From Mobula hypostoma (taxonomy: Eukaryota), in contig NC_086108.1 in assembly GCF_963921235.1 (NCBI RefSeq), positions 3,968,001 to 4,032,000 on the forward strand: a stretch of DNA of 64,000 bases, read 5' to 3'. Positions 2,275 through 41,139 of the stretch are shown piece after piece. Under the pieces are notes generated by a model. That model was not told the origin of the DNA. It searched no databases and saw nothing but the letters and a program-made list of their open reading frames with translations. A program made the translations under genes and the position numbers. The first letter of the stretch is position 1. Each line of letters starts with the position of its first letter.

Positions 2275-4116
2275 TAGGGTTGCCAACTGTCCCGTATTAG
2301 CCGGGACATCCCGTATATTGGGCTAAATTGGTTTGTCCCATACGGGACCGCCCTTGTTCCGTATTTCCCCCGCTAAGGTAGAGCGTTCCTATGAAACCTT
2401 TCGTGCCAAAATGGTGTAAAGCGAAGAAGCAATTACCATTAATTTATATGGGAAAAATTTCTGAGCGTTCCCAGACCCAAAAAAAACCCTACCAAATCAT
2501 ACCAAATAACACATGAAACCTAAAATAACACTAAGATATAGAACATAGAATAGTACAGCACAGTACAGGCTCTTCAGCCCACAATGTTGTGCCGACCCTC
2601 AAACCCTACCTCCCATATAAGCCCCCACCTTAGATTCCTCCATATACCTGTCTAGTAGTCTCTTAAACTTCACTAGTGTATCTGCCTCCACCACTGACTC
2701 AGGCAGTGCATTCCACGCACCAACCACTCTCTGAGTAAAAAACCTTCCTCTAATATCCCCCTTGAACTTCCCACCCCTTACCTTAAAGCCATGTCCTCTT
2801 GTATTGAGCAGTGGTGCCCTGGGGAAGAGGCGCTGGCTATCCACTCTATCTATTCCTCTACACCTCTATCATGTCTCCTGTCATCCTCCTTCTCTCCAAA
2901 GAGTAAAGCCCAAGCTCCCTTAATCTCTGATCATAATGCATACTTTCTAAACCAGGCAGCATCCTGGTAAATCTCCTCTGTACCTTTTCCAATGCTTCCA
3001 CATCCTTCCTATAGTGAGGTGACCAGAACTGGACACAATACTCCAAGTGTGGCCTAACCAAAGTTTTATAGAGCTGCATCATTACATCACGACTCTTAAA
3101 CTCTATCCCTCGACTTATGAAAGCTAACACCCCATAAGCTTTCTTAACTACCTTATCCACCTGTGAGGCAACTTTCAGGGATATGTGGACATGTACCCCA
3201 AGATCCCTCTGCTCCTCCACACTACCAAGTATCCTGCCATTTACTTTGTACTCTGCCTTGGAGTTTGTCCTTCCAAAGTTTACCACCTCACACTTCTCTG
3301 GGTTGAACTCCATCTGCCACTTCTCAGCCCACTTCTGCATCCTATCAATGTCTCTCTGCAATCTTTGACAATCCTCTACACTATCTACAAAACCACCAAC
3401 CTTTGTGTCATCTGCAAACTTGCCAACCCACCCTTCTACCCTCACATCCAGGTTGTTAATAAAAATCACGAAAAGTAGAGGTCCCAGAACAGATCCTTGT
3501 GGGACACCACTAGTCACAATCCTCCAATCTGAATGTACTCCCTCCACCACAACCCTCTGCCTTCTGCAGGCAAGCAAATTCTGAATCCACCTGGCCAAAC
3601 TTCCCTGGATCCCATGCCTTCTAACTTTCTGAATAAGCCTACCATGTGGAACCTTGTCAAATGCCTTACTAAAATCCATATAGATCACATCCACTGTACT
3701 ACCCTCATCTATATGCTTGGTCACCTCCTCAAAGAACTCTATCAGGCTTGTTAGACACGATCTGCCCTTCACAAAGCCATGCTGACTGTCCCTGATCAGA
3801 CCATGATTCTCTAAATGCCTATAGATCCTATCTCTAAGAATCTTTTTAGTAAAAGCAGGAATGATATGATAAATCATTTATATATATATATATACAGCCT
3901 ATATAAAGTAGAAATAATGTGTGTACAGTGTAATTTCACTGAACAGAATCGCCAAAACCAATTTGTAGAAAAAAATCGGCACGTACACGCATGCGCACAC
4001 AGGTGCCCATGCAAGGCTTCATGGTCATGGTTGTCTTTCTCGGGGTAAACACAAGTGTCCTGTATTTGACTGCTACTTTTGTCCCTTATTTGGGAGTGAG
4101 AAAGTTGGCAACCCTA
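2275..4116. mobile_element. hAT (Blackjack-like) non-autonomous element carrying a CR1 insertion
   Basis: TIRs TAGGGTTGCCAAC / GTTGGCAACCCTA; perfect 8-bp TSD TGTAAGAC at 2267-2274 and 4117-4124. Confidence 0.9.
2540..3847 (-). mobile_element. CR1 LINE, 5'-truncated, RT domain largely open
   Basis: ORF 2858-3877: QHGFVKGRSCLT, DFSKAFDKVPH, GVPQGSVLGP, KFADDTK, RPHLEYCVQFWSP; CR1 3' tail near 2540. Confidence 0.95.
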
Positions 4117-4580
4117 TGTAAGACAGTGGTTGTTGGGACGAGAGCCGATTTCACTCATCTTCTGAGATGGTCAGCTCCATGGCGCTGAGGCTGTGAAGAC
4201 TGCCCCGGCTGCTGTGCTCTGTGACTGCTGATATGAACTGATAAGCAAAGTTTTGGGCCTACTCAATGGCTGTGTATCTGAGGATTCATTTTTGGTTCAA
4301 AATGCTGTTGTTCATTTCAATTGCATGATTTGTGTTTTTTTCCTTTCTCTCGTGCACCGAGTATTGGTCTTTCACATTTTTAAAATTTAATTGGGTTCTT
4401 TTTTCTTTTGGGTTTCTTGCTTTGTGGCTACCTGTGAGCAAGCAAATGTCAAGGTGGTTTAATTTATACGTACTCTGATAATGAACTTGAATCTTAAATG
4501 TGCATGCACGTGTGCGAGCACACACGTACATATATGTGTATATACGTGTGTATGTATATGTGTGTGTGTGTGTGTATATA

Positions 4581-5274
4581 TGTAGCCCCCCTGGCCACCC
4601 TCAGGGTCGCTCGGCTCGCTGTCGTCTAGGGAAACAGCCTCAGCCCCGCCAAACTGGGTAATTAGTTGGTGTGGATGCTGTGTGAGGTACCCCACCCCGC
4701 CCAAATAACAGACAATACACCAGATGCAATTAAATGATATACAGTTTATAGATATTACTGGAACTATATAATTAAAAGAGAATAAAATATAAAAGGAAAA
4801 TAAAAGGCGCCACACTTATCAAAGTTCAATCTCTTCATGCACAAAACCGTTGGAGCTCAAGGACCTTCTTCTTCACCCTGCGACCCCCTCGGACCACCTC
4901 GACCGGCCGCCTGGGACCAACAACGGTGGTCGACCAGACGCTCCACACGAGCCCGTCTCCGTCTCCTCGCCGAACGTCCCGCTCGGGGTCCGACCCCGTT
5001 AGCGGACTCACAGCACCTCGTCCATCCTCTGTCTCGCTCTCCCGCCTTCTGCCCCAAAACCCCGCGCATACAGTATCTTCAAATACACCAAAACCATAAC
5101 AACTATTCCAATTGGTTAATAACGTATTTCTTATCACCCTCTAAACCACAACAAGCTGCTAGCGCAAACTTTCTCAGCGTTTAAGACAACAAAGCCGCAT
5201 TCCCCAGATTTACATAACAAAGACGCCATTTTAATTAGCTTCCGCAGTAACATAAAAATCGAAACCTCCTTACA
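4581..5274 (-). repeat. 3' LTR
   Basis: Direct repeat of 7955-8648; preceded on the - strand by a polypurine tract (5275-5289). Confidence 0.95.
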
Positions 5275-5806
5275 CTCCTCCCCCCCACCAAATAAAGTCA
5301 TGTCCTCATGACTTCTAATTAACTCGCCACCCAGTCCTACAGACACACAACACACACATACACAGATACACACAGTGACAGTGCTCCCCAAACAGTGGAC
5401 CTTACTCCCGTCCCATGGGCGCTAAATAGGCCAACCTATCTGGGATTGAGACCTCCGTACCCTCTCACCTAAACCCAAAAGGCTCAGACACTACTAGGGA
5501 TACCTCGGGCCTGTTTGCCAACTCCTCTCTCACTCAGGCCACTGCTACAGCTCGGAGCCCCCAGTCCCATGTCCAGGGCCCCGCCTCTCCTCCTTCCCAA
5601 TCCTGCCGCAACTCAGACTGCCCACAGCTAGCCCTCCCCACTACACCTGACTCAGTGGGAGAAGGGCCAAAGGTCTCTTCCTCAATCACGGGGAAGTTAG
5701 CGAAAGGCAGCATGTTCCACATGTGCAGCACATCATCCTTCGAATCCGTATCCTTCCTCATTCCCTCGATTGATAGCTACTGGTTAAGTTTCTCCAAACT
5801 GAAACA

Positions 5807-7474
5807 TTAAGCCGGGGCTACCCCTTCAGCCTCCTGCAGTCGAGACGTCAGCTCCTTCGGGGACTCCTTCAACTCTCGCCACAGCCTCAGCAGTTCTGAC
5901 TCAGGGTTCCTGGCCATCTCAATCTGGGACGCAGTTACCCCACCAGCTTCTTCCACCCTGACCTGAAAAGCAGCAGATAAAGAATGTTCAGCCTCCGGTT
6001 GTTTCTTCCTCAGGACGTCTTCCAGGTCAACGTTCAGTTTTTCCACATCATTTAAACTCGCGATAGTCATCTTCAGGTTCCTTACAAGCCTCCGCCTCCC
6101 TTTTCCGAGATCTGTCCTCCATTTTTTCACCTCCTCGGGAGTGTAGTCAAACTCCCCTCCCTGGGCTCTCGGTTTTCTGTTGACCTTAGTCAGAACACTT
6201 CCTTGATCTTCCCCAACTTGTAAGTCTTCCAATCTGTTCTGAATCGATGTCTTGAGTTTCTGCTGATCCCTTCGAAGGCGGGTCATTGTTTCTTCTCGCT
6301 GGATTAATTCGTCAGTATATGACCGCAGTGCGGTGCAAATCTCCTCTCTTCCCTGTGTCTCATTCAGATTGACGACCTGGGTTTCCATCCCCCGGTCCAC
6401 CACTGTCTGTCCCAACACCAGGAAGTTCAACTGGTATGTCGGGTCATTTTCCTCACATTGCACCAAACTCCTCCGGCCAAAAACTCCTCCACATTTGACA
6501 CTTCGCTTCGGTCGCCCGAGCTCAGCCACTCGCCTCGCCTCATAGTCCCCCCAGGCGAATCCAAGCTCTAGGCGGTCATCCACATACGTCAAAACTCCAC
6601 ACACCTTCACTTCCCCCATGGTCTTCCTCATGCCCCGCAGGAAGGATGCAGGGGCTCCGGATATGCCCTTGGGCGTCTTTTCGGATCGGAAGAATCCTAG
6701 GGAACTAGTAACAGCCATCTTCAGCTCAACAGCCGCACTCCTCAGGATCTGGCAACATCCACCCCTCAGATGCAGCACATTAAACCACATCGCATCATCC
6801 CTACACACGCTGCCTTCATCTTCCATGCCGCCAGGGTCCAGTTGCCGTGACCTCTCTCTCACTGAGGTGTCTTCAGCGGTCAACTCCCCTCCCTCGTGGT
6901 GGTTCGGAGCATCTACTAAGAGGGTCTCACCCTCAGCTACTTTCCCCAAGCCGTACCACCACTGGGTCTCGTTTAAATTCGGTACCGGCTCAAGGCTGCT
7001 GCACACGTCCTCAGAAGCAACTCGACATGCTGGGTGCCCAGACAATGCCCCCATGAACTCCAGGGTCATTAACCAATCATCGTCTTCTGGATAACTACTG
7101 CCACTAGTACCCAAAATCTCCGATGCCCTTGCAGTTGTCAAGGATAAATGCTTCAGACACCGGTTGTAAAATGAACTGTACAACAACTTGATCTGTGCCC
7201 CGGGGTCGAGGATAGCTTTAGCATCGCTTCCCTCTATCCATAACGACACCCTGGGGTGTGGTCCCTCTAAGCCTTCAGGAATAGGGTCTTTTCCTTGCGG
7301 AAGTTCAGTGGCACATTGCTGGGAACGTGCTTCCCCAGAGACCCCAAGCCTTTCCCCCACTGGGCCTCCACTAAGTTTCCCGACACCTCTCTGATCAGCT
7401 GAACAACTGATCCCCTGAAATGATCCCCCTGGCACTGCAAGCAATTTAGCCGCCCTCCTAGCCAGAGAAGACAC
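5807..7474 (-). CDS. 555-aa chimeric ORF: degenerate Gypsy protease and RT fragments fused to a myosin heavy-chain rod-like segment
   Basis: AILDPGAQI (protease-like, D[ST]G changed to DPG); WFNVLHLRGGCCQI, PKGISGAPASF and LTYVDD (RT); then LEDLQVGEDQ..LTK, LKMTIASLNDVEK and VEEAGGVTASQIE (myosin tail-like). Start codon and expression are uncertain. Confidence 0.6.
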   Translation of the reverse strand: MSSLARRAAKLLAVPGGSFQGISCSADQRGVGKLSGGPVGERLGVSGEARSQQCATELPQGKDPIPEGLEGPHPRVSLWIEGSDAKAILDPGAQIKLLYSSFYNRCLKHLSLTTARASEILGTSGSSYPEDDDWLMTLEFMGALSGHPACRVASEDVCSSLEPVPNLNETQWWYGLGKVAEGETLLVDAPNHHEGGELTAEDTSVRERSRQLDPGGMEDEGSVCRDDAMWFNVLHLRGGCCQILRSAAVELKMAVTSSLGFFRSEKTPKGISGAPASFLRGMRKTMGEVKVCGVLTYVDDRLELGFAWGDYEARRVAELGRPKRSVKCGGVFGRRSLVQCEENDPTYQLNFLVLGQTVVDRGMETQVVNLNETQGREEICTALRSYTDELIQREETMTRLRRDQQKLKTSIQNRLEDLQVGEDQGSVLTKVNRKPRAQGGEFDYTPEEVKKWRTDLGKGRRRLVRNLKMTIASLNDVEKLNVDLEDVLRKKQPEAEHSLSAAFQVRVEEAGGVTASQIEMARNPESELLRLWRELKESPKELTSRLQEAEGVAPA

Positions 7475-7539
7475 ACTGAAAACTTTCCCCCCTCTTTCAG
7501 ATAACTGACAGCTGTCACTACGGTGTAAGTGAACCTGAC

Positions 7540-7695
7540 AGCTCTAACGCTGTCACCAGCCCGCCTACTCAAACTTTCAACCAATCCCTGTCACTCTCCC
7601 TCAACCGAGCACTGCCACTCATCTAACAACTGAGAGATCTGCTCCGCCCACGTCTCACACGCCTCCGCCCCTCCTGGGGTGGACACTATCCCAAG
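7540..7695 (-). pseudogene. PNMA-like Gypsy gag remnant
   Basis: Manual translation GIVSTPGGAEACETWAEQISQLLDEWQCSVEGE*QGLVESLSRRAG; one in-frame TGA. Confidence 0.7.
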
Positions 7696-7933
7696 TGCCA
7701 GGCGGAGCTAGAACATTTATTCGCAGACTCTACCTCCAAATCAGACCACTCTTTCCTCTCTCTCCCAACTGCATGGACAGCCCCGAGTTCCACCTCCAAC
7801 TCGTCAATGCTAGTCTGAACTCGAACAAAGACCTCACCCACAACACATACAGCAATCACCAGCAAATAACCCACAGAGACACACATTACAGATTTAAACA
7901 GGGCACCCACACAGCATACCAACAGACTCAAGC

Positions 7934-7951
7934 ATCCCGGACAAGCCCCCA
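7934..7951 (-). promoter_or_regulatory. Primer-binding site complementary to tRNA-Pro
   Basis: The - strand reads TGGGGGCTTGTCCGGGAT, 3 nt after the 5' LTR; one mismatch to the canonical tRNA-Pro PBS TGGGGGCTCGTCCGGGAT. Confidence 0.85.
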
Positions 7952-7954
7952 CAA

Positions 7955-8648
7955 TGTAGCCCCCCTGGCCACCCTCAGGGTCACTGGGCTCGCTGTCGTC
8001 TAGGGAAACAGCCTCGGCCCCGCCAAACTGGGTAATTAGTTGGTGTGGATGCTGTGTGAGGTACCCCACCCCGCCCAAGTAACAGACAATACACCAGATG
8101 CAATTAAATGATATACAGTTTATAGATATTACTGGAACTATATAATTAAAAGAGAATAAAATATAAAAGGAAAATAAAAGGTGCCACACTTATCAAAGTT
8201 CAATCTCTTCGTGCACAAAACCGTTGGAGCTCAAGGACCTTCTTCTTCACCCTGCGACCCCCTCGGACCACCTCGACCGGCCGCCTGGGACCAACAACGG
8301 TGGTCGACCAGACGCTCCACACGAGTCCGTCTCCGTCTCCTCGCCGAACATCCCGCTCGGGGTCCGACCCCATTAGCGGACTCACAGCACCTCGTCCAGC
8401 CTCTGTCTCGCTCTCCCACCTTCTGCCCCAAAACCCCCTCGCAAACAGTATCTTCAAATACACCAAAACCATAACAACTATCCCAATTGGTTAATAACGT
8501 ATTTCTTATCACCCTCTAAACCACAACAAGCTGCTAGCGCAAACTTTCTCAGCGTTTAAGACAACAAAGCCGCATTCCCCAGATTACATAACAAAGACGC
8601 CATTTTAATTAGCCTCTGCAGTAACATAAAAATCGAAACCTCCTTACA
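7955..8648 (-). repeat. 5' LTR
   Basis: Direct repeat of 4581-5274; about 18 differences in 694 bp by manual count, many at CpG; adjacent to the PBS. Confidence 0.95.
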
Positions 8649-9060
8649 TATATATATGTGTGTGTGTGTGTATGTGTATGTATATATATATATATATACA
8701 CACACACTCACATTAATTTCTTATTGTAATTTATAGGTTTTTTTAAATTATGTATTGCATTGTACTGCTTCTGAAAAGCAACATTTTTCACGGCATTTGC
8801 CAGTGATGTTAAACCTGATTTTAATTCTGAAATTTAGGTCATTTGTTCTTGCCACTGCGGTTATAATAGTGACACACTTCTGACTTAGTGACTGTTCTCT
8901 CTTCCCACTCTGGATAATGGACAACTTTCCTTGCACTCTTATCAGAATCATGTTTAACATCACCAGTGCATGTTGTGAAATATGTTAACTTTACGGCAGT
9001 AGTACAATGAAATACATGATAAGTACAGTAACATACAGAAAAAATAGGGTAAGTATATAT

Positions 9061-11715: not shown

Positions 11716-13935
11716 CACGGCTGTAGAAAAGGAGGAGGTCTTGGAGGGATTGTCTACTGAGTTTCTGTGAGTGGAAGTTAGGAACGGGAAGGGTTTAATA
11801 ACTCTACTGGGTGTTTCTTAAACCACCCAATAGTAACAGGGATATCGAGGAGCAGATAGGGAGACAGATTCTGGAAGGGTGTAATAATAACAGGGTTGTC
11901 GTGGGAGATTTTAATTTCCCAGGTATTGATTAGCATCTCCCTAGAGCAAGAGGTGGCGTTTGTTAGGTGTATTCAGGAAGGTTTCCTGACACAATATGTA
12001 GATAAGCCTACAAGAGGAGAGGCTGTACTTGATCTGGTATTGGGAAATTAACCTGGTTAGGTGTCAGGTCTCTCAGTGGGAGAGCATTTTGGAGATAGTG
12101 ATCACAATTCTATTTCCTTTGCCACAGCATTGGAGAGGAATAGGAACAAACAGGTTAGGAAAGCGTTGAATTGGAGTAAAGGGAAATATGAAAATATGAA
12201 GCTATCAGGCAGGAACTTGGAAGCATAAATTGGGAAGAGATGTTCTCAGGGAAATGTACGGCAGAAATGTGGCAAATGTTCAGGGGATATTTAGGTGGTG
12301 TTCTGCATAAGTACGTTCCAGTGAGACAGGGAAAGGATGGTAGGGTACAGGAACCGTGGTGTACAAAAGCTGCTGAAAATCTAGTCAAGAGGAAAAGAAA
12401 AGCTTACAAAGGGTTCAAAAAAGTAAGTAATGATAGAGATCTAGAAAATTATAAGGCTAGCAGGAAGGAGCCATGAGAAGGGCTTGGCAAGCAGGATAAA
12501 GGAAAACCCCAAAGCATTCTACAAGTATGTGAAGAGCAAGAGGATAAGATGTGAGAGAATAGAACCAATCAAGTGTGACAGTGGAAAAGTGTTTATGGAA
12601 CCGGAGGAGATAGCGGAGGTAGTTAATGAATACTTTGCTTCAGTATTCACTACGGAAAAGGATCTTGGTGATTGTAGGGATAACTTACAGTGATTTGAAA
12701 AACTTGAGCATATAGACATTAAGAAAGAGGGTGTGTTGGAGCTTTTGGAAAGCATCAAGTTGGATAAGTCACCGGGATCGGACAAGATGTATCCCAGGCT
12801 ACTTTGGGAGGCGAGGGAGGAGATTGCCAATCCTCTGGCAATGATCTTTGTGTCATCAACGAGGATGGGAGAGGTTCCAGAGGATTGGAGGGTTACAGAT
12901 GTTATTCCCTTATTCAAGAAAGGGAGTAGAGATAGTCCTGGAAATTTAGGACCAGTGAGTCTTACTTCATTAGTTAGTAAGTTGATGGAGAAGATCCTAA
13001 GAGGCAGGAGTTATGAACATTTGGAGAGGCATAATGTGATTAGGAATAGTCAGCATGATTTTGTGAAAGGCAGGTCATGCCTTACAAACCTGATTGAATT
13101 TTTTGAGGATGTGACTAAACACATTGATGAAGGTAGAGCAGTAGATGTAGTGTATATGGATTTCAGCAAGGCATTTGATAAGGTACCCCATGAAAGGCTT
13201 ATTGAGAAAGTAAGGAGACATGGGATCCAAGAGGACCTTGCTTTGTGGATCCTGAATTGTCTTGCCCACAGAAGGCAAAGAGTGGTCGTAGACAGGTCAT
13301 ATTCTGCATGGAGGTCAGTCACCAGTGGTGTGCCTCAGGGATCTGTTCTGGTACCTCTCCTCCATTATTGGGGTATTGTTGCAGCTGTATAGGATCCTGG
13401 TCAGATCCCACCTGGAGTACTCTGCTCAGTTCTGGTCACCTCACTACAGGAAGGATGTGGAAACTATAGAAAGGGTGCAGAGGAGATTTACAAGGATGTT
13501 GCCTGGATTGGGGAGCATGCCTTATGAGAATAGGTTGAGTGAACTTGGCCTTTTCTCCTTGGAGTGACGGAGGATGGGAGGTGACCTGATAGAGGAGTAT
13601 AAGGTGATGAGAGGCATTGATCATGTGGATAGTCAGAGGCTTTTTCCTAGGGCTGAAATGGCTAACACGAGAGGGCACAGTTTTAAGATGCTTAGGTACA
13701 GAGGGGATGTCAGGGGTAAGTTTATTATGTACAGAGTGGTGAGTGTGTGGAATGGGCTGCCGGCGATGGTGGTGGAGGTGGATACTAAAGGGTCGTTTAA
13801 GGGACTCCTGGATAGGTACAGGGAGATTAGAAAAATAGAGGGCTATGGGTAACCCTAGGTAATTTCTAAGGTAGGGACATGTTCGGCACAGCATTGTGGT
13901 CCGAAGGGCCTGTATTGTGCTGTAGGTTTTCTGTG
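11716..13935 (+). mobile_element. CR1 LINE, degenerate, with internal deletions
   Basis: RIKENPKAFYKY, KSPGSD..YPRLL, DFSKAFDKVPH, GVPQGSVL, then jumps directly to RSHLEY..FWSP; 3' tail near 13930. Confidence 0.92.
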
Positions 13936-17800: not shown

Positions 17801-18289
17801 GTGTAAAGAGTTATTGAACTTCTGAAATTGATTCGGCAGTCAAGAAATCCTGCACCTCTTGACGGTCGAGCAAAACCATCTCTGAGAACCACTTTTCAAG
17901 GTGATTCTAAGATGAGCGGGGTGACAAAGAGAGGGTTTAAAACCTTTATTGTACAGCTCAGACATGACTTTCTTAAACTTGAAGTGTTCATTCAACAGCT
18001 CGGGTGAAAAATCTTCTGCAATTCTGAACTTCTGGTCTTCATAATCAATCATACCTTTCTAACAAGATTCACGAATTAAAAGTTCCTTTGTTTGAAAGTT
18101 GTGAAGACAAATTATCACAGAGCGGGATCGTCCTCCCAGAGGAGGTCTTGGTACAGGCGATCTGTGAGCTCGATCTACTTTAGGTGGAGATTTTAAAATA
18201 TTCAGAAATAAATTAGCCAGAAGGTTTGCAAAAAATTCCGAAGGCTGATTGCCTTCCGATGACTCTTTAAAACCCAGAATGTCTGCCTG

Positions 18290-19605
18290 TCTACTATAAG
18301 CCTACTGACTCTCACAGCTATCTGGACTATTCCTCTTCTCACCCTGTCTCTTGCAAAAACGCCATCCCCTTCTCGCAATTCCTCCGTCTCCACCGCATCT
18401 GCTCTCAGGATGAGGCTTTTCATTCTAGGACGAGGGAGATGTCTTCCTTTTTTAAAGAAAGGGGCTTCCCTTCCTCCACTATCAACTCTGCTCTTAAACG
18501 TATCTCCCCCATTTCACGTACATCTGCTCTCACTCCATCCTCCCACCACCCCACTAGGAATAGGGTTCCCCTGGTCCTCACCTACCACCCCACCAGCCTC
18601 CGGGTCCAACATATTATTCTCCGTAACTTCCGCCACCTCCAACGGGATCCCACCACTAAGCACATCTTTCCCTCCCCCCCTCTCTCTGCATTCCGCAGGG
18701 ATCGCTCCCTACACAACTCCCTTGTCCATTCGTCCCCCCCATCCCTCCCCACTGATCTCCCTCCTGGCACTTATCCGTGTAAGCGGAACAAGTGCTACAC
18801 ATGCCCTTACACTTCCTCCCTTACCACCATTCAGGGCCCCAAACAGTCCTTCCAGGTGAGGCATCACTTCACCTGTGAGTCGACTGGGGTGATATACTGC
18901 GTCCGGTGCTCCCGATGTGGCCTTTTATATATTGGTGAGACCCGACGCAGACTGGGAGACCGCTTTGCTGAACATCTATGCTCTGTCCGCCAGAGAAAGC
19001 AGGATCTCCCAGTGGCCACACATTTTAATTCCACATCCCATTCCCATTCTGACATGTCTATCCACGGCCTCCTCTACTGTGGAGATGAAGCCACACTCAG
19101 GTTGGAGGAACAACACCTTATATTCCGTCTGGGTAGCCTCCAACCTGATGGCATGAACATTGACTTCTCTAACTTCCGCTAAGGCCCCACCTCCCCCTCG
19201 TACCCCATCTGTTACTCATTTTTATGCACACATTCTTTCTCTCACTCTCCTTTTTCTCCCTCTGTCCCTCTGAATATACCACTTGCCCATCCTCTGGGTC
19301 CCCCTCCCCCGTCTTTCTTCCCGGACCTCCTGTCCCATGATCCTCTCGTATCCCCTTTTGCCAATCACCTGTCCAGCTCTCGGCTCTATCCCTTCCCCTC
19401 CTGTCTTCTCCTATCATTTTGCATCTCCCCCTCCCCCTCCAACTTTCAAATCCCTTACTCACTCATCCTTCAGTTAGTCCTGACGAAGGGTCTCGGCCTG
19501 AAACGTCGACTGCACCTCTTCCTATAGATGCTGCTTGGCCTGCTGCGTTCACCAGCAACTTTGATGTATGTTGCTTGAATTTCCAGCATCTGCAGAATTC
19601 CTGAT
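18290..19605 (+). mobile_element. Penelope-like element (Neptune-type), 5'-truncated, with GIY-YIG endonuclease
   Basis: YYKPTDSHSYL RT C-terminus, C-x4-C-x2-C linker, GVIYCVRCSRCGLLYIGET and open reading frame to 19182; pyrimidine-rich 3' UTR. Confidence 0.92.
19475..19512 (+). ncRNA. Minimal type-I hammerhead ribozyme motif in the Penelope 3' repeat
   Basis: TAGTC-CTGACGA-AGG(GTCTCGG)CCT-GAAA-CGTC-GACTG: intact CUGANGA/GAAA core, GUC site, stem I TAGTC/GACTG, palindromic ACGU stem III. Confidence 0.85.
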
Positions 19606-30447: not shown

Positions 30448-32068
30448 CAGTGGCATGCAAAGGTTTGGGCACCCTGGTTAAAATTCCTGTTACTGTGAAT
30501 AGTTAAGTGAGCAGAAGATGAACTAATCTCCAGAAGTCATAAAGTTAAAGATGAAACATTCTTTTCAACACTTTAAGCAAGATTAGTGTATTATTTTTGT
30601 TTTGTACAATTTTAGAATGAAGAAAAGGAAAGGAGCACCATGCAAAAGTTTGGGTACCCGAAGAGATTTGATCCTTCAGATAACTTTTACCAAGGTCTCA
30701 GACCTTAATTAGCTTGTTAGGGCTATGGCTTTTTCACAGTCATCATTAGGAAAGGCCAGGTGACTCAAATTTCAAAGCTTCATAAATACCTTGACTTCCC
30801 AAACCTTGTCCCAACAATCAGCAGCGATGGGCTCCTCTAAGCAGCTTCCTAGCACTCTGAAAATTAAAATAAATGATGCCCACAAAGCAGGAGAAGGCTA
30901 TAAGAAGATAGCAAAGCGTTTTCAGGTAGCCGTTTCCTCAGTTCATAATGTAATTAAGAAACAGCAGTTAACAGGAACGGTGGAGGGCAAGTTGAGGTCT
31001 GGAAGACCAGGAAAACTTTCTGAGAGAACTGCTCGTAGGATTGCTAGAAAGGCAAATCAAAACCCCCGTTTGACTGCAAAAGACCTTCAGGAAGATTTAG
31101 CAGACTCTGGAGTGGTGGTGCACTGTTCTACTGTGCAGCAACACCTGCACAAATATGACCTTCATGGAAGAGTCATCAGAAGAAAACCTCTCCTGCGTCC
31201 TCACCACAAAATTCAGCGTCAGAAGTTTGCAAAGGAACACCTAAACAAGCCTGATGCATTTTGGAAACAGGTCCTGTGGACTGATGAAGTTAAAATAGAA
31301 CTTTTTGGCCACAATGAACAAAGGTATGTTTGGAGAAAAAAGGGTGCAGAATTTCATGAAAAGAACAACTCTCCAACTGTTAAGCATGGGGGTGGATCGA
31401 TCATGCTTTGGGCTTGTGTTGCAGCCAATGGCACGGGGAACATTTCACTGGTAGAGGGAAGAATGAATTCAATTAAATACCAGCAAATTCTGGAAGCAAA
31501 CATCACACCGTCTGTAAAAAAAACTAAAGATGAAAAGAGGATGGCTTCTACAACAGGATAATATCCTAAACACACCTCAAAATCCGCAATGGACTACCTC
31601 AAGAGGTGCAAGCTGAAGGTTCTGCCATGGCCCTCACAGTCCCCTGACCTAAACATCATTAGGAATCTGTGGATAGACCTCAAAAGAGCAGTGCATACAA
31701 GACGGCCCGAGAATCTCACAGAACTAGAAGCCTTTTGCAAGGAAGAATGGGCGAAAATCCCCCAAACAAGAATTGAAAGACTCTTAGCTGGCTACAGGAA
31801 GCGTTTACAAGCTGTGATACTTGCCAAAGGGGGTGTTACTAAGTACTGCTATGCAGGGTGCCCAAACTTTTGCCTCAGGCCCTTTTCCTTTTTTGTTATT
31901 TTGAAACTGTTAAAGATGGAAATAAAAAAGTAATCTTGCCTAAAATATTAAAGAAATGTGTCATCTTTAACTTGATGCCTTTTGGAAATCAGGTCATCTT
32001 TTACTCGCTTAGCTATTCACAGTAACAGAACTTTTGACCAGGGGTGCCCAAACTTCTGCATGCCATTG
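30448..32068 (+). mobile_element. Full-length Tc1-like transposon (IR/DR type), inserted in a CR1 fragment
   Basis: TA at 30446-47 and 32069-70; about 210-bp imperfect inverted repeats with inner and outer GCAAAxGTTTGGGxACCC direct repeats; 1621 bp. Confidence 0.95.
30827..31850 (+). pseudogene. Tc1 transposase, disrupted
   Basis: MGSSKQL..GYKKIAK, GRP, VLWTDEVK, KHGGGSIMLW, QQDN, WPSQSPDLN; frameshifts around 31515-31565; catalytic E replaced (LNIIRNLW). Confidence 0.9.
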
Positions 32069-34670: not shown

Positions 34671-35289
34671 GGTTCTCGTAACAACAGGTTACAAACAGTC
34701 CACAGGAACAGAGCCCTGCTGTAAACTGGGGACGACCTGTGTAGCTTTAGAAGAGGTTGGCAGAGACCTTTGGCGATGATAGATGGCACTCTGCAGGCTG
34801 GAGAAGAATCTAAATTCTGCATTTGTTCAAATGTTGCTGCAACTGTGTGAGTTAATTTGCAAGTGATTTAATCCTGCCGAGTCAATTAAATTCAAGCAGA
34901 AAGTGCCAGTGTCCATACCGTGTAAGTAGCAACACCATTAAAGATTTAAAGAGGTTTATTCCAATCAACACTATAGCATAGCCTTGTGTGATCCTGCTAT
35001 GGTTTACAGCCATTGAAGTACTTTTCATAAAAGCACTGCTGTAGTATATAAAGACAACGTGGTGTTAGAAATCCAGGAATCTGCAAGCAGCCGTCTAGTG
35101 TGTGGCTCACTGTGGCAGGGCAATAGGCTCTGTGCTCGTGTGGTGTTGACCAACGAAGGTGTAACCCTGGTTCTGAATTACTGTTTGGACTATTGCGTTA
35201 ATGGACAGTGGACTTTCACAGACTTACAGTTTTTATATTTTGTGTTTTTCACCCATTTCTTTCTGTTTAGTTGTGCAAGAGGCAGGGTT

Positions 35290-36050
35290 TTGGGGTCGAT
35301 GTTCTTGTTCTGTTTTGTGCGGGGGAAGGGGGTTTGGGATCGATGTTCTTGTTCTGTTTTGTGCGGGGGAATGGGTTTTGGGATCGATGTTCTTGTTCTG
35401 TTTTGTGCGGGGGAATGGGTTTTGGGATCGATGTTCTTGTTCTGTTTTGTGCGGGGGAAAGGGGTTTGGGATCGATGTTCTTGTTCTGTTTTGTGCGGGG
35501 GAAGGGGGTTTTGGGATCGATGTTCTTGTTCTGTTTTGTGCGGGGGAAGGGGGTTTGGGATCGATGTTCTTGTTCTGTTTTGTGCGGGGGAAGGGGGTTT
35601 GGGATCGATGTTCTTGTTCTGTTTTGTGCGGGGGAATGGGTTTTGGGATCGATGTTCTTGTTCTGTTTTGTGCGGGGGAAGGGGGTTTGGGATCGATGTT
35701 CTTGTTCTGTTTTGTGCGGGGGAATGGGTTTTGGGATCGATGTTCTTGTTCTGTTTTGTGCGGGGGAAGGGGGTTTGGGATCGATGTTCTTGTTCTGTTT
35801 TGTGCAGGGGAAGGGGGTTTGGGATCGATGTTCTTGTTCTGTTTTGTGCAGGGGAAGGGAGTTTGGGATCGATGTTCTTGTTCCGTTTTGTGCGGGGGAA
35901 GGGGGTTTGGGGGCGATTTTGTTTTGTGGGAGGAGGGTTTGGGTGTTGATGATTGGGATGCTGTTTTTTTGTGCGGGGGAAGGGGGTTTGGGGGCGATTT
36001 TGTTTTGTGGGAGGAGGGTTTGGGTGTTGATGATTGGGATGCTGGTTTTT
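35290..36050. repeat. 43-45-bp G-rich minisatellite (14 units) followed by an ~81-bp duplication
   Basis: Unit GGGATCGATGTTCTTGTTCTGTTTTGTGCGGGGGAAGGGGGTTT with variant ..GGGGGAATGGGTTTT. Confidence 0.97.
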
Positions 36051-38890: not shown

Positions 38891-39887
38891 TTAGATTAGA
38901 TTCAACTTTATTGTCATTGTGCCGAGTACAGATACAAAGCCAATGAAATGCATTTAGCATCTGACCGGAAATGCAAAGAATAGTGTTATTTACAAAATAA
39001 CTATGAATAAAAAAAGTGCTTACAGCACACAAATATAAAAGTACTGAGGCAGTACAATACGGATGCAATACTGCTTAGCGCTGTGATGAGAGGTTCAGCA
39101 GGGTCACAGCCTCAGGGAAGAAGCTCTTCCTGTGCCTGCTGGTGCGGGAGCGGAGGCTCCTGTAGCGCCTACCGGATGGGAGGAGAGTAAAAAGTCCATG
39201 GTTAGGATGAGATGCATCCCTGATAATGCTTTTCACCCGCCCAGGCAGCGTTTATGGTAGATGTTCTCAATGGTGGGCAATTGGGTGCCAATAATCTGCT
39301 GGGCAGTTTTCACCACACGCTGGAGTGCTTTGTGGACCGATACGGGACAATTGCTATACCACACTGAGATGCAGTTGGTGAGTATGCTCTCAATGGTACA
39401 GCAGTAAAAATCCGTCAGTATCCTGGGACAGAGGTGAGATTTCTTGATGCTTCGCAGGAAATAAAGGTTCTGTTCCGCCTTTTTGATCCAGATGGAGGAG
39501 TTCAGGGACCAGGTGAGATCCTCGGAAATGTGGACACCAAGGAATTTGAAGCTTGATACACGCTCCACTACAGTTCCGTTGATGTAGATGGGGACGTGAG
39601 TGTGACTCCTGGCATGCCTAAAGTCCACAATGATCTCCTTGGTCTTCTGGGTGTTAAGAGCCAGGTTGTTGTCGGCACACCATGCGGCCAGGTGCTGGAC
39701 CTCGTCCCTGTAGGCCGTCTCATCATCCCCTCTGATCAGACCAACCACTGTGGTGTCGTCTACGAACTTGATTATGGAGTTAGAACCATGTACAGGAATG
39801 CAGTCATAGGTGAAAAGGGAGTACAGAAGAGGGCTCAGCACACAGCCTTGAGGCATGCTGGTGTTCAGGGTGAGAGTGGAGGAGGAG
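38891..39887 (-). mobile_element. Rex1/Babar-type LINE, 5'-truncated, relatively well preserved
   Basis: ORF 39233-39856: [39 protein letters not shown]; (AATCT)n 3' tail. Confidence 0.88.
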
Positions 39888-41139
39888 AGGTTGCTCCTGC
39901 TCCTGTGCCCTGTGGCACTGGTTTCTGGTCCTAGACCATGTGCTGTGATTACATTGACTGGCTTCTAGTTCTCAGGTGTATAAAGGTGAACACACATGCG
40001 CGCATCTCCCTCTTGACCCTGAGCTACTCCGGGCTGAGAGCCACAGGCAGTGCTAGAGAAACCATTTGGAAAGTGTGTTACAGTTAATAGGGGGAGGGTC
40101 TCGTATTTTGGGTGGACACATAGTTAAGTAGATGTTTATTGCTTGTTTAATCTTGTTGTGCAAATTGGAGAGATTTAACAAGTGTATTGAGAGCTTAGTG
40201 TTGTAGTTTCTATAGTTTATGTGGAACTATATCTGTAACCCTGGTCTTTATGAATTTGTAACTTTTGTAAAATGTAACGTGACAAATTTGAACCTGTGTG
40301 GCCCCAGAGTGTGTTGTTAGTTCATTAGGATGGGAGGCTTACAAGAAGTGTTTGTGTGTTTTATAGCATGGGTGTATTTATGATGAGGAATGTTTTGGTA
40401 ACCGAGAAAAACAGGATACAGCTTTTATTGGGGGGAGTGGTGGTGGTGGAGAAGAAGCCACAAAAGACAAATGGACTGATTGTGCTACAGATGCTAGGAT
40501 GTCATTATCAGATGGAATGATCTCAAGCAGATGAAGTTAAATTACTGGTCTCTGTAAAAAAATATAAAAATGGTTTGTTCTGAGCTCTAAGATTGAAGCT
40601 ACTTTCCAGTGACAACGAATGGAGGTAGACATTCCCTTTCAAGTAATAAATGTGCTTATAATTTGATCCACTCTGAAACTGTTGTTGTCTGTTACTCTAT
40701 ATCAGAGGACCTAACTGAATGGTGCACAGACATTTGGGTGACTTAGATGAGCGCTTGTTTGATGTACAGGCGTGTACAGTGTTTCATTGCTTGCTTGTGA
40801 ATAAACAGTTGCTGTACTTACCCACAATCAGCGTCTGCTGTTTCACTTACCGAACCCGCAAATCTCCTTCTGTATGACGGAGCACAGAGCACTGGAGCAT
40901 AGTTCATTGAAAGCAGCATCACAGTAGACCAAGTGATGAGAGAGGTGTTCAGCATGCTGGCCTTCATCAGTCAGGGCTCTGTGTACAGGAGTTGTTGTAC
41001 CATAGCAGATCGATTGCGAGAACGTGGCAAGTGGCTGATCGATGACCCAGTGAATCGATTAGGCCTTCCTCACATGGAGAACTCTCTTTTGGGCACAGGT
41101 GCTTGAGTGCCCAGGTTTTTGTCCTGGTGGACCTGGATG

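Follow-up and report, generated by a model that had tools for sequence, protein, structure and literature searches.

Acutely transforming retroviruses transduce cellular genes: a spliced message takes the place of viral coding sequence, and the resulting genome is defective and helper-dependent. A comparable arrangement is found in the ray Mobula hypostoma, in a stretch of 64,000 nucleotides of NC_086108.1 (hereafter, the window, whose numbering is used for all coordinates). Here, a long terminal repeat (LTR) element of the Ty3/Gypsy type carries a fragment of a MYH16-type myosin heavy-chain rod fused in frame to the remnants of its pol gene. As in the transforming retroviruses, in which in-frame fusion to a viral protein is frequent, the insert goes back to a spliced cellular message and the genome that carries it is defective. 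The ray element differs in that it lacks an oncogene, has become fixed in the germ line, and has been amplified as a transposon family.

Capture of host mRNA by vertebrate elements has been described in crocodilian endogenous retroviruses (ERVs), which took up KIT-ligand and nectin3 (CrocERV31) messages; the same account calls such capture “relatively uncommon” and reports purifying selection on the captured open reading frames (ORFs) (PMC4299795). As far as that account goes, the ray element resembles the crocodilian ERVs in being a vertebrate LTR retroelement with an intronless copy of a host mRNA, in having lost an element gene, and in continuing to multiply by retrotransposition. However, the carrier in the ray is a Ty3/Gypsy (Metaviridae-type) element of a cartilaginous fish and not an ERV. 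What it carries is part of a structural coiled-coil rod, joined in frame to pol, whereas the crocodilian inserts are described as whole ORFs replacing env. In addition, its copies number in the hundreds or more and its selection tests are near neutral.

LTR retrotransposons and other transposable elements of plants also capture gene fragments (PMC13317346, 10.1101/777037). To the extent of these descriptions, the plant cases share with the ray family the carriage and amplification of host gene fragments by non-autonomous LTR elements. The host here is an animal, however, and the cross-talk through small interfering RNAs that is discussed for maize is not plausible in the ray, where the longest exact match to the source-type gene is 14–16 bases. 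Extra ORFs have further been described in LTR retrotransposons of bdelloid rotifers (PMC5408684) and in Cer1, whose CERV has a demonstrated role in RNA export (PMC10309623). As described, these are likewise Gypsy-type elements with non-canonical coding sequence, but the available accounts identify no host donor for their ORFs, whereas the donor family of the ray insert is clear. Searches of the literature found no retrotransposon described as carrying a myosin or MYH16 fragment, no such case in a cartilaginous fish, and no account of the ray family. The ray element is a new instance of a known process, the capture of host mRNA by an LTR retroelement. The copy at 4581–8648 is very probably one decayed member of a high-copy non-autonomous Ty3/Gypsy family, which carries the captured myosin sequence as a passenger and is mobilized in trans.

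Overall Structure of the Element

The element is 4,068 bp long and is read on the minus strand. Its 5′ LTR (7955–8648, 694 bp, TG…CA) and its 3′ LTR (4581–5274) are direct repeats of each other with 97.4% identity (16 substitutions, K 0.023). From the reading of the sequence, a primer-binding site (PBS) of 18 bases lies at 7934–7951 (minus strand), 3 bases past the 5′ LTR, and a polypurine tract (PPT) at 5275–5289 (minus strand) adjoins the 3′ LTR on its upstream side. The PBS is probably of the tRNA-Pro type, the one used by gamma-retroviruses, with agreement at 17 of its 18 positions. The same four bases, TATA, stand at both ends of the element, at 8649–8652 (the upstream copy in the orientation of the element) and at 4577–4580 (the downstream copy). 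Since the flanks are a TA/CA microsatellite, the duplication of this copy alone is weak evidence. The family nevertheless has short target duplications at independent sites, which, together with the two TG…CA LTRs, the PBS, and the PPT, are the features of Ty3/Gypsy membership. These features show a retroviral-type cycle. A preliminary description, made from the letters of the window, had recognized a Gypsy-type LTR element, and the LTRs, PBS, PPT, and pol remnants agree with it.

The internal region contains a frame of 578 codons from stop to stop (5810–7543, minus strand), which is closed by a stop codon at 5807–5809. It had been counted previously as 555 codons; the open frame is real, but this length was too short. 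The first ATG is codon 159 (7067–7069), from which 420 codons remain. The frame consists of remnants of a Ty3/Gypsy protease (PR), reverse transcriptase (RT), and RNase H fused to the rod fragment. The protease-region remnant (codons 64–170; 7034–7354, minus strand) is marked by phmmer matches to Ty3/Gypsy polyproteins, e.g., P0006 at 3–105 and P0047 at 330–396, and was recovered also by tblastn with residues 11–102 of P0010. The RT core remnant (codons 233–344; 6512–6847, minus strand) shows 37% identity to P0010 at 406–525, within the RVT_1 domain of that protein; it includes the YVDD motif, located correctly before at 6575–6586, and lacks both ends of the domain. The RNase H remnant (codons 355–384; 6392–6481, minus strand) aligns to P0010 at 697–726, inside its RNase H domain, and matches the RNase H part of a longer relative, L037, at the DNA level. 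It contains the block EENDPTYQL, which had been taken for myosin; the alignments to Gypsy polyproteins and to the longer relative assign it to RNase H.

A phmmer search with the first 400 residues of the ORF against 1.84 billion representative proteins returned 129 matches at E ≤ 1e-3, which fall on ORF residues 64–170 (protease) and 242–345 (RT core). Ten of these, hand-picked and mostly long, were scanned for Pfam domains. RVT_1 was present in nine (above the cut-off in eight), RT-linked RNase H domains in seven, a PNMA-type Gag in five, and the integrase core rve in five (above the Pfam cut-off in four). The order PR, RT, RNase H is preserved in the window element and fits Gypsy as far as RNase H. 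Neither gag nor integrase was found in it. An autonomous element would have intact gag, RT, and integrase; this one has no gag, no integrase, and an RT without either end, and its RT stretch reads as a degraded remnant and not as a working enzyme.

The Captured Myosin Rod Fragment

The MYH16-derived rod fragment occupies 5774–6391 (minus strand). It begins at 6391 with the residues GMETQ and extends past the stop codon of the window copy to ~5774, so that stops at 5807–5809 and 5777–5779 interrupt it. When the C-terminal 225 residues of the ORF were compared with all PDB chains, 11 of the 12 matches were sarcomeric myosin II heavy chains (best E 8.4e-8), and the matches were colinear, query 52–167 corresponding to myosin 977–1092 and query 137–209 to myosin 1111–1185. 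In a second search, termed “longer,” over 5.8 billion proteins, the sole non-self match was a skate “myosin-16-like” protein (E 2.2e-12); the other match was a 95%-identical “uncharacterized protein [Mobula birostris].” Pairwise BLASTP aligned query 53–208 with skate 894–1100 at 71 identical positions of 207, with one 42-residue gap (E 1e-25). The similarity to myosin far exceeds generic coiled-coil likeness, and the captured myosin rod proposed in the preliminary description is upheld by these colinear matches to PDB chains and to the skate protein. The element also contains MYH16-specific motifs, e.g., the block DLKMTI..LNEME.LK.DLEE. At the heptad a/d positions, 53–59% of its residues are hydrophobic, compared with 62–68% in real myosins and 16–24% at other positions.

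When the ray’s own genome was searched at the protein level with a stretch of skate MYH16, 2,639 first-look candidates emerged, and 94 of them were scored. Seven less degraded, intronless myosin-like loci (L036–L042) were retrieved and are called older variants below. Three of them (L037, L038, and L040) share one layout, namely, gag (PNMA-like, weak), PR, RT, RNase H, and then directly the rod; relatives of the family have a PNMA-like Gag. Their rods correspond to shark MYH16 from residue 881 to 1123, 1146, and 1133, respectively, with 43–49% identity and E values down to 3e-62. In the ungapped part, the identity to shark MYH16 is 47–48% with ~70% positives, and one or two stops are present. 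No integrase was found in these three loci within the 8 kb examined for each. Longer relatives keep ~250–410 colinear rod residues after gag-PR-RT-RNaseH, and L040 and L041 extend the rod to RLEEAGG...ELLRLR. In L041, which shows the block RLQEAEEAAEAAQ, the rod jumps from ~1174 to ~1381 and clearly reads KLTSRLQEAEEAAEAAQAKCSSLEKTKQQL thereafter; the counterpart in shark MYH16, at 1388, is RLQEAEE. Through this junction, the RLQEAE block of the window copy, previously assigned to myosin, was placed at ~residue 1388.

On the same scale, the window fragment comprises shark MYH16 residues ~905–926, 972–1079, 1089–1098, 1141–1174, and ~1381–1415, joined in frame. The rod losses in the window frame are 45, 9, 42, and ~206 residues, all in frame, and the several frame-preserving deletions that had been postulated to shorten the insert are thus mapped against the longer relatives and shark MYH16. 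Because RNase H is retained upstream of the insert in the longer relatives, the insert replaced integrase only. Originally it followed RNase H, in the place of integrase, with RNase H and gag disappearing later. An insertion in place of both RNase H and integrase had been proposed before; the integrase part of that proposal holds, but the RNase H part does not.

Similarity between the window element and the older variants runs through the 3′ internal region but stops ~57 bases into the LTR, at element position 3432. As the rest of the LTR is unmatched in L036–L042, the young family has a different or fast-diverged LTR. Separately, two loci, L011 (C18:48745523–48746731) and L012 (C50:30689110–30689772), show long intronless Myosin_tail_1 matches with several in-frame stops and profile coverage of 514–920 and 552–778, respectively; these may represent processed pseudogenes of myosin or a further case of fragment capture.

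Spliced Origin and Placement of the Donor

The MYH16 orthologue resident in the genome maps to ~112.715–112.745 Mb of contig C36, and its exons are 79–96% identical to skate MYH16. Separate exons correspond to skate residues 862–923, 923–953, 953–1001, 999–1031, 1050–1080, and 1080–1162, with introns at ~923, 953, 1001, 1031–1050, and 1080. The element frame crosses all of these positions uninterrupted. Since the insert is intronless across the exon junctions of the resident gene, the donor molecule was a spliced mRNA, in agreement with the source suggested in the preliminary description. The longest exact match between the element and the 30-kb MYH16 locus is 14–16 bases. Small-RNA cross-talk with MYH16 was considered and rejected, as exact matches of this length are the longest available.

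In the same genome, similar myosin-tail exon matches recur at a minimum of eight loci on contig C68, spaced by tens of kb over ~15.31–15.89 Mb (L023–L027, L029, L030, and L032), and two loci on other contigs (L028 and L031) match like them. The L023 exon groups with non-MYH16 sarcomeric myosins in the tree described below, and this part of C68 has the appearance of sarcomeric MYH genes arrayed in tandem.

The tree was built from 24 hand-picked proteins of 120 listed, host exons, and element fragments; five empty or duplicate rows were dropped, and because BLAST had put the window row in the wrong register ahead of residue 972, that part of it was masked. All element fragments fall into a single clade (support 100). 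This clade and MYH16 are split from the other sarcomeric myosins, also with support 100, which confirms the resemblance to MYH16 noted earlier and indicates that the insert is MYH16-type by descent. Within this group, the element clade lies below the entire jawed-vertebrate MYH16 crown on a branch of 0.46–0.48 substitutions per site. In approximately unbiased (AU) tests, placement with batoid MYH16 gave p 0.017 for all fragments (fast searches) and p 0.037 for the older variants only, and placement within elasmobranch MYH16 gave p 0.018 and p 0.037, respectively. Placement within chondrichthyan MYH16 gave p 0.063 for all fragments (fast searches) and p 0.11 for the older variants only, the latter from an incomplete constrained search. 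At eight columns with elasmobranch-derived states, the fragments carry the derived state 0–1 times and the ancestral state 2–6 times. A host myosin had been named as the donor; the resident MYH16 is not shown to be the source, and the AU test rejects the batoid and elasmobranch placements (p 0.017–0.037). The capture may be old, the donor a lost paralogue or foreign, or the basal placement a long-branch artefact.

Copy Number, Mobility, and Decay of the Frame

The 675-base myosin segment gave 845 first-look candidates in the genome. Of these, 40, one of which is the window itself, were scored, and all 40 match at full length with 96–100% identity on many contigs. The element is high-copy, in the hundreds or more. 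Twenty non-self copies were surveyed, taken as the best matches to the myosin segment of the window and hence biased to close relatives. The segment and the two LTRs are present in every one; colinearity extends over the full element in 17, at 92–95% identity, and three have internal deletions. With the window copy included, exact 4-bp target duplications of differing sequence flank 17 of 21 copies, three further copies have one mismatch, and one has no duplication. The segment therefore was mobilized after its capture, as had been suggested, given its presence between the same LTRs in all 20 copies and these duplications. LTR–LTR K across the copies has a median of 0.039 (range 0.023–0.059), which corresponds to insertion ages of roughly 10–30 million years under an assumed, unmeasured neutral rate of 1e-9 per site per year.

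One copy, L044 (C50:41743702–41748370), has no target duplication, and its upstream flank resembles the polypurine end of a further copy. In its first 980 bases, L044 repeats the 3′ part of the element, which suggests a tandem pair sharing one LTR. Twenty sequencing runs under four organism labels contain part of the stretch, which is no more than a hint of its presence in other species; no RNA run is listed among them. Among public proteins, four of the family are annotated, all from one manta-ray gene set. P0256, [quoted passage not shown] shows 91% identity to the element ORF over 420 of 450 residues. No Pfam GST domain is present in it, and the model is probably a chimeric annotation based on a copy of the element.

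The frame of the family is longer than that of the window copy. Past the window stop it continues over 5534–5806 (minus strand), a stretch that is open in a related copy (L063) and in the public protein P0134, and it ends at the family stop at 5534–5536, ~260 bases before the 3′ LTR, giving 669 codons. None of the 21 copies has this frame free of stops and frameshifts, and only two have the 578 codons of the window unbroken. The terminal stop of the window (codon 579) occurs in two of the 21 copies, and a second stop ten codons on (codon 589) in one. In total, the copies contain 29 stops at 22 positions, three of which are shared: codon 102 (six copies) and codons 579 and 588 (two copies each). 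The stop at codon 102 (7238–7240) may be a subfamily marker or a recurrent mutation. Because the window ORF ends at a rare nonsense lesion and no copy is intact, its length is no evidence of constraint on this copy. The 578-codon ORF is a truncated relic.

Selection Tests

Selection was examined against a neutral model derived from the mutation spectrum of singletons across the non-coding sequence of the 21 copies in the alignment, for which the expected non-synonymous fraction is 0.718. For the whole ORF, singletons comprised 229 non-synonymous (N) and 98 synonymous (S) changes (omega_rel 0.92, p 0.50), and shared variants comprised N 104 and S 51 (omega_rel 0.80, p 0.21). Shared variants of the myosin part (N 26, S 14) gave omega_rel 0.73 with p 0.38. 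When the window is compared with the seven older variants, the ratio of non-synonymous to synonymous divergence (dN/dS, NG86) is 0.48–0.79, against a neutral baseline of ~0.77 (an expected N/S of 2.55 divided by the site ratio, 3.29). Identity to MYH16 at the a/d core positions is no higher than elsewhere (all p > 0.28). Inserted copies decay neutrally, and the substitution patterns are near neutral. These tests demonstrate no constraint, nor do they reveal selection acting on the coiled-coil sequence as such. The preliminary description had read the long open frame as a hint of constraint; with the frame ended by a nonsense lesion found in two of 21 copies, no copy keeping 669 codons, and N/S near neutral, that suggestion is not supported.

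Origin of the Element and Alternative Explanations

The most probable history is that of a defective element spreading with a passenger. An ancestor would have lost integrase and gained at least ~535 codons of a spliced MYH16-type mRNA (rod ~881 to 1415 or more) right after RNase H. The route was likely template switching or read-through on a co-packaged mRNA during reverse transcription, like retroviral transduction. Later deletions, all frame-preserving, would have stripped away gag, the two ends of RT, the greater part of RNase H, and at least four blocks of the rod, leaving a 4.07-kb element with a single frame of 669 codons. With no Gag, no integrase, and a truncated RT, such an element must be copied in trans: RNA from the 5′ LTR would be packaged, reverse-transcribed via its own PBS and PPT, and integrated by the proteins of an autonomous relative. 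Insertion in trans would leave 4-bp target duplications of the kind observed. The myosin part is most likely a passenger in this cycle. Two simpler accounts of the locus can be set aside. Generic coiled-coil composition as the source of the similarity is ruled out, for practical purposes completely, by the 11 myosin chains among 12 PDB matches, the E value of 3e-62 over 243 ungapped residues, and the grouping with MYH16 at support 100. That an LTR element landed next to or in a processed MYH16 pseudogene has next to no probability, as the segment stands between the LTRs in all 20 copies, at different loci, each set of flanks bearing target duplications of its own.

Several results weigh against the passenger history. 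No autonomous partner with the same LTRs was found. Pfam RVT_1 stays below its cut-off on the window ORF (E 0.27, 11.4 bits vs 29.6), and Myosin_tail_1 (PF01576), a profile proposed earlier as a check on the rod, has no match to that ORF at E ≤ 1. Two older variants reach 15.5 and 18.1 bits against Myosin_tail_1, at colinear profile positions 121–280, where the cut-off is 38.1. The Pfam matches of the window ORF are weak and fall on unrelated coiled-coil families; homology was therefore established by phmmer, BLAST, and the longer relatives. Since the fragment branches outside the host MYH16 lineage, a “host” capture in the ray lineage is unproven. Singletons in the myosin part (N 55, S 38) gave omega_rel 0.57 with p 0.011, uncorrected and one of six tests. 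Between the seven older variants and the resident MYH16, pS is 0.80–0.96 (saturated) and pN is 0.24–0.37, on an exon map that partly reads into introns. All internal deletions, at least six relative to the longer relatives, preserve the frame, which fits selection on the replicating lineage. Stops are mostly private to single copies, so the 669-codon frame of the progenitor was open, although the older and young variants differ by 20–25% in nucleotide sequence and many stops would be expected at such divergence with a stop share of 0.049 per mutation. That the replicating lineage retained an open frame despite all the deletions and considerable divergence is a hint of selection for such a frame. 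On this basis, the frame or its coiled-coil protein may have been co-opted, the replicating lineage needing it open while only inserted copies decay. It could have served as a multimerization or assembly module replacing integrase, or as a long ORF that shortens the 3′ untranslated region and spares the RNA from nonsense-mediated decay. The excess of pS over pN against host MYH16, the still hydrophobic a/d positions (53–59%), and some pairs of older variants in which these positions change less than others would agree with such a role. However, the dN/dS values of 0.48–0.79 include the neutral ~0.77, the shared variants over the ORF do not depart from neutrality (omega_rel 0.80, p 0.21), and the a/d positions are not closer to MYH16 than the rest. 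Three of the four rod deletions (45, 9, and ~206 residues) are not multiples of seven and break the heptad phase, no copy of 21 is intact, and the family was noticed through its long ORF, a source of ascertainment bias. We consider co-option in either form quite improbable. The fuller version of it earns the same small share of belief: in the remote past, or in a different host, a Gypsy lineage would have taken up a stem-type MYH16 rod and kept ~200–500 codons of it in frame with pol as a working module replacing integrase. An equally slim chance attaches to the function given to that module, i.e., multimerizing Pol or RNA in particles or evading nonsense-mediated decay, and so helping the gag-less 4-kb derivative to become abundant.

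The other alternative concerns the donor. The rod may have been captured recently from the resident MYH16 of the ray lineage, with fast neutral divergence mimicking a basal position by long-branch attraction. The branch of 0.46–0.48 substitutions per site invites such artefacts, the MYH16-specific motifs of the element are in keeping with a resident source, and the AU test does not reject a chondrichthyan placement (p 0.063, or 0.11 with the incomplete constrained search). Nevertheless, the batoid (p 0.017, 0.037) and elasmobranch (p 0.018, 0.037) placements are rejected, and ancestral states outnumber elasmobranch-derived ones at the eight diagnostic columns (2–6 vs 0–1). Moreover, pS of 0.80–0.96 with pN of 0.24–0.37 is unlike purely neutral divergence from the resident gene, and the longest exact match to its locus is 14–16 bases. 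A recent capture is accordingly regarded as unlikely, and the spread of a non-autonomous Ty3/Gypsy element with a passenger rod of MYH16 type is preferred.

Other Features of the Window

Three other frames of the window match RVT_1, at 2858–3877 (minus strand, E 1.7e-28), 12694–13392 (plus strand, E 2e-16), and 39233–39964 (minus strand, E 2e-12), the last of which additionally matches ALKBH8_N. All three are parts of other retroelements, with no DNA-level match to the myosin-bearing element. An open frame at 30764–31561 (plus strand) carries a Tc1/mariner-type transposase signature, HTH_Tnp_Tc3_2 (E 6.4e-22), together with HTH_SB. At 18271–19182 (plus strand), a frame of 303 codons has a weak GIY-YIG match (E 3.8e-4, below the cut-off) and may be a Penelope-like element. 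Finally, a 44-bp tandem repeat at 35285–35911 (14.2 copies, 96% match) yields open frames on both strands.

Implications

Capture of host messages is well known for retroviral oncogenes and plant elements and is rarely documented in vertebrate germ lines. The ray family provides a well-preserved series, from gag-PR-RT-RNaseH-myosin to the 4-kb derivative, of a defective element whittled down in frame while still spreading. It also has a practical side: in the public manta-ray gene set, copies go by the name “uncharacterized protein” or, in one case, by that of a glutathione S-transferase isoform, and hundreds of myosin-like ORFs can mislead counts of gene families. If it is true that the frame was selected, the family would be a test case for the retention of ORFs by non-autonomous retroelements.

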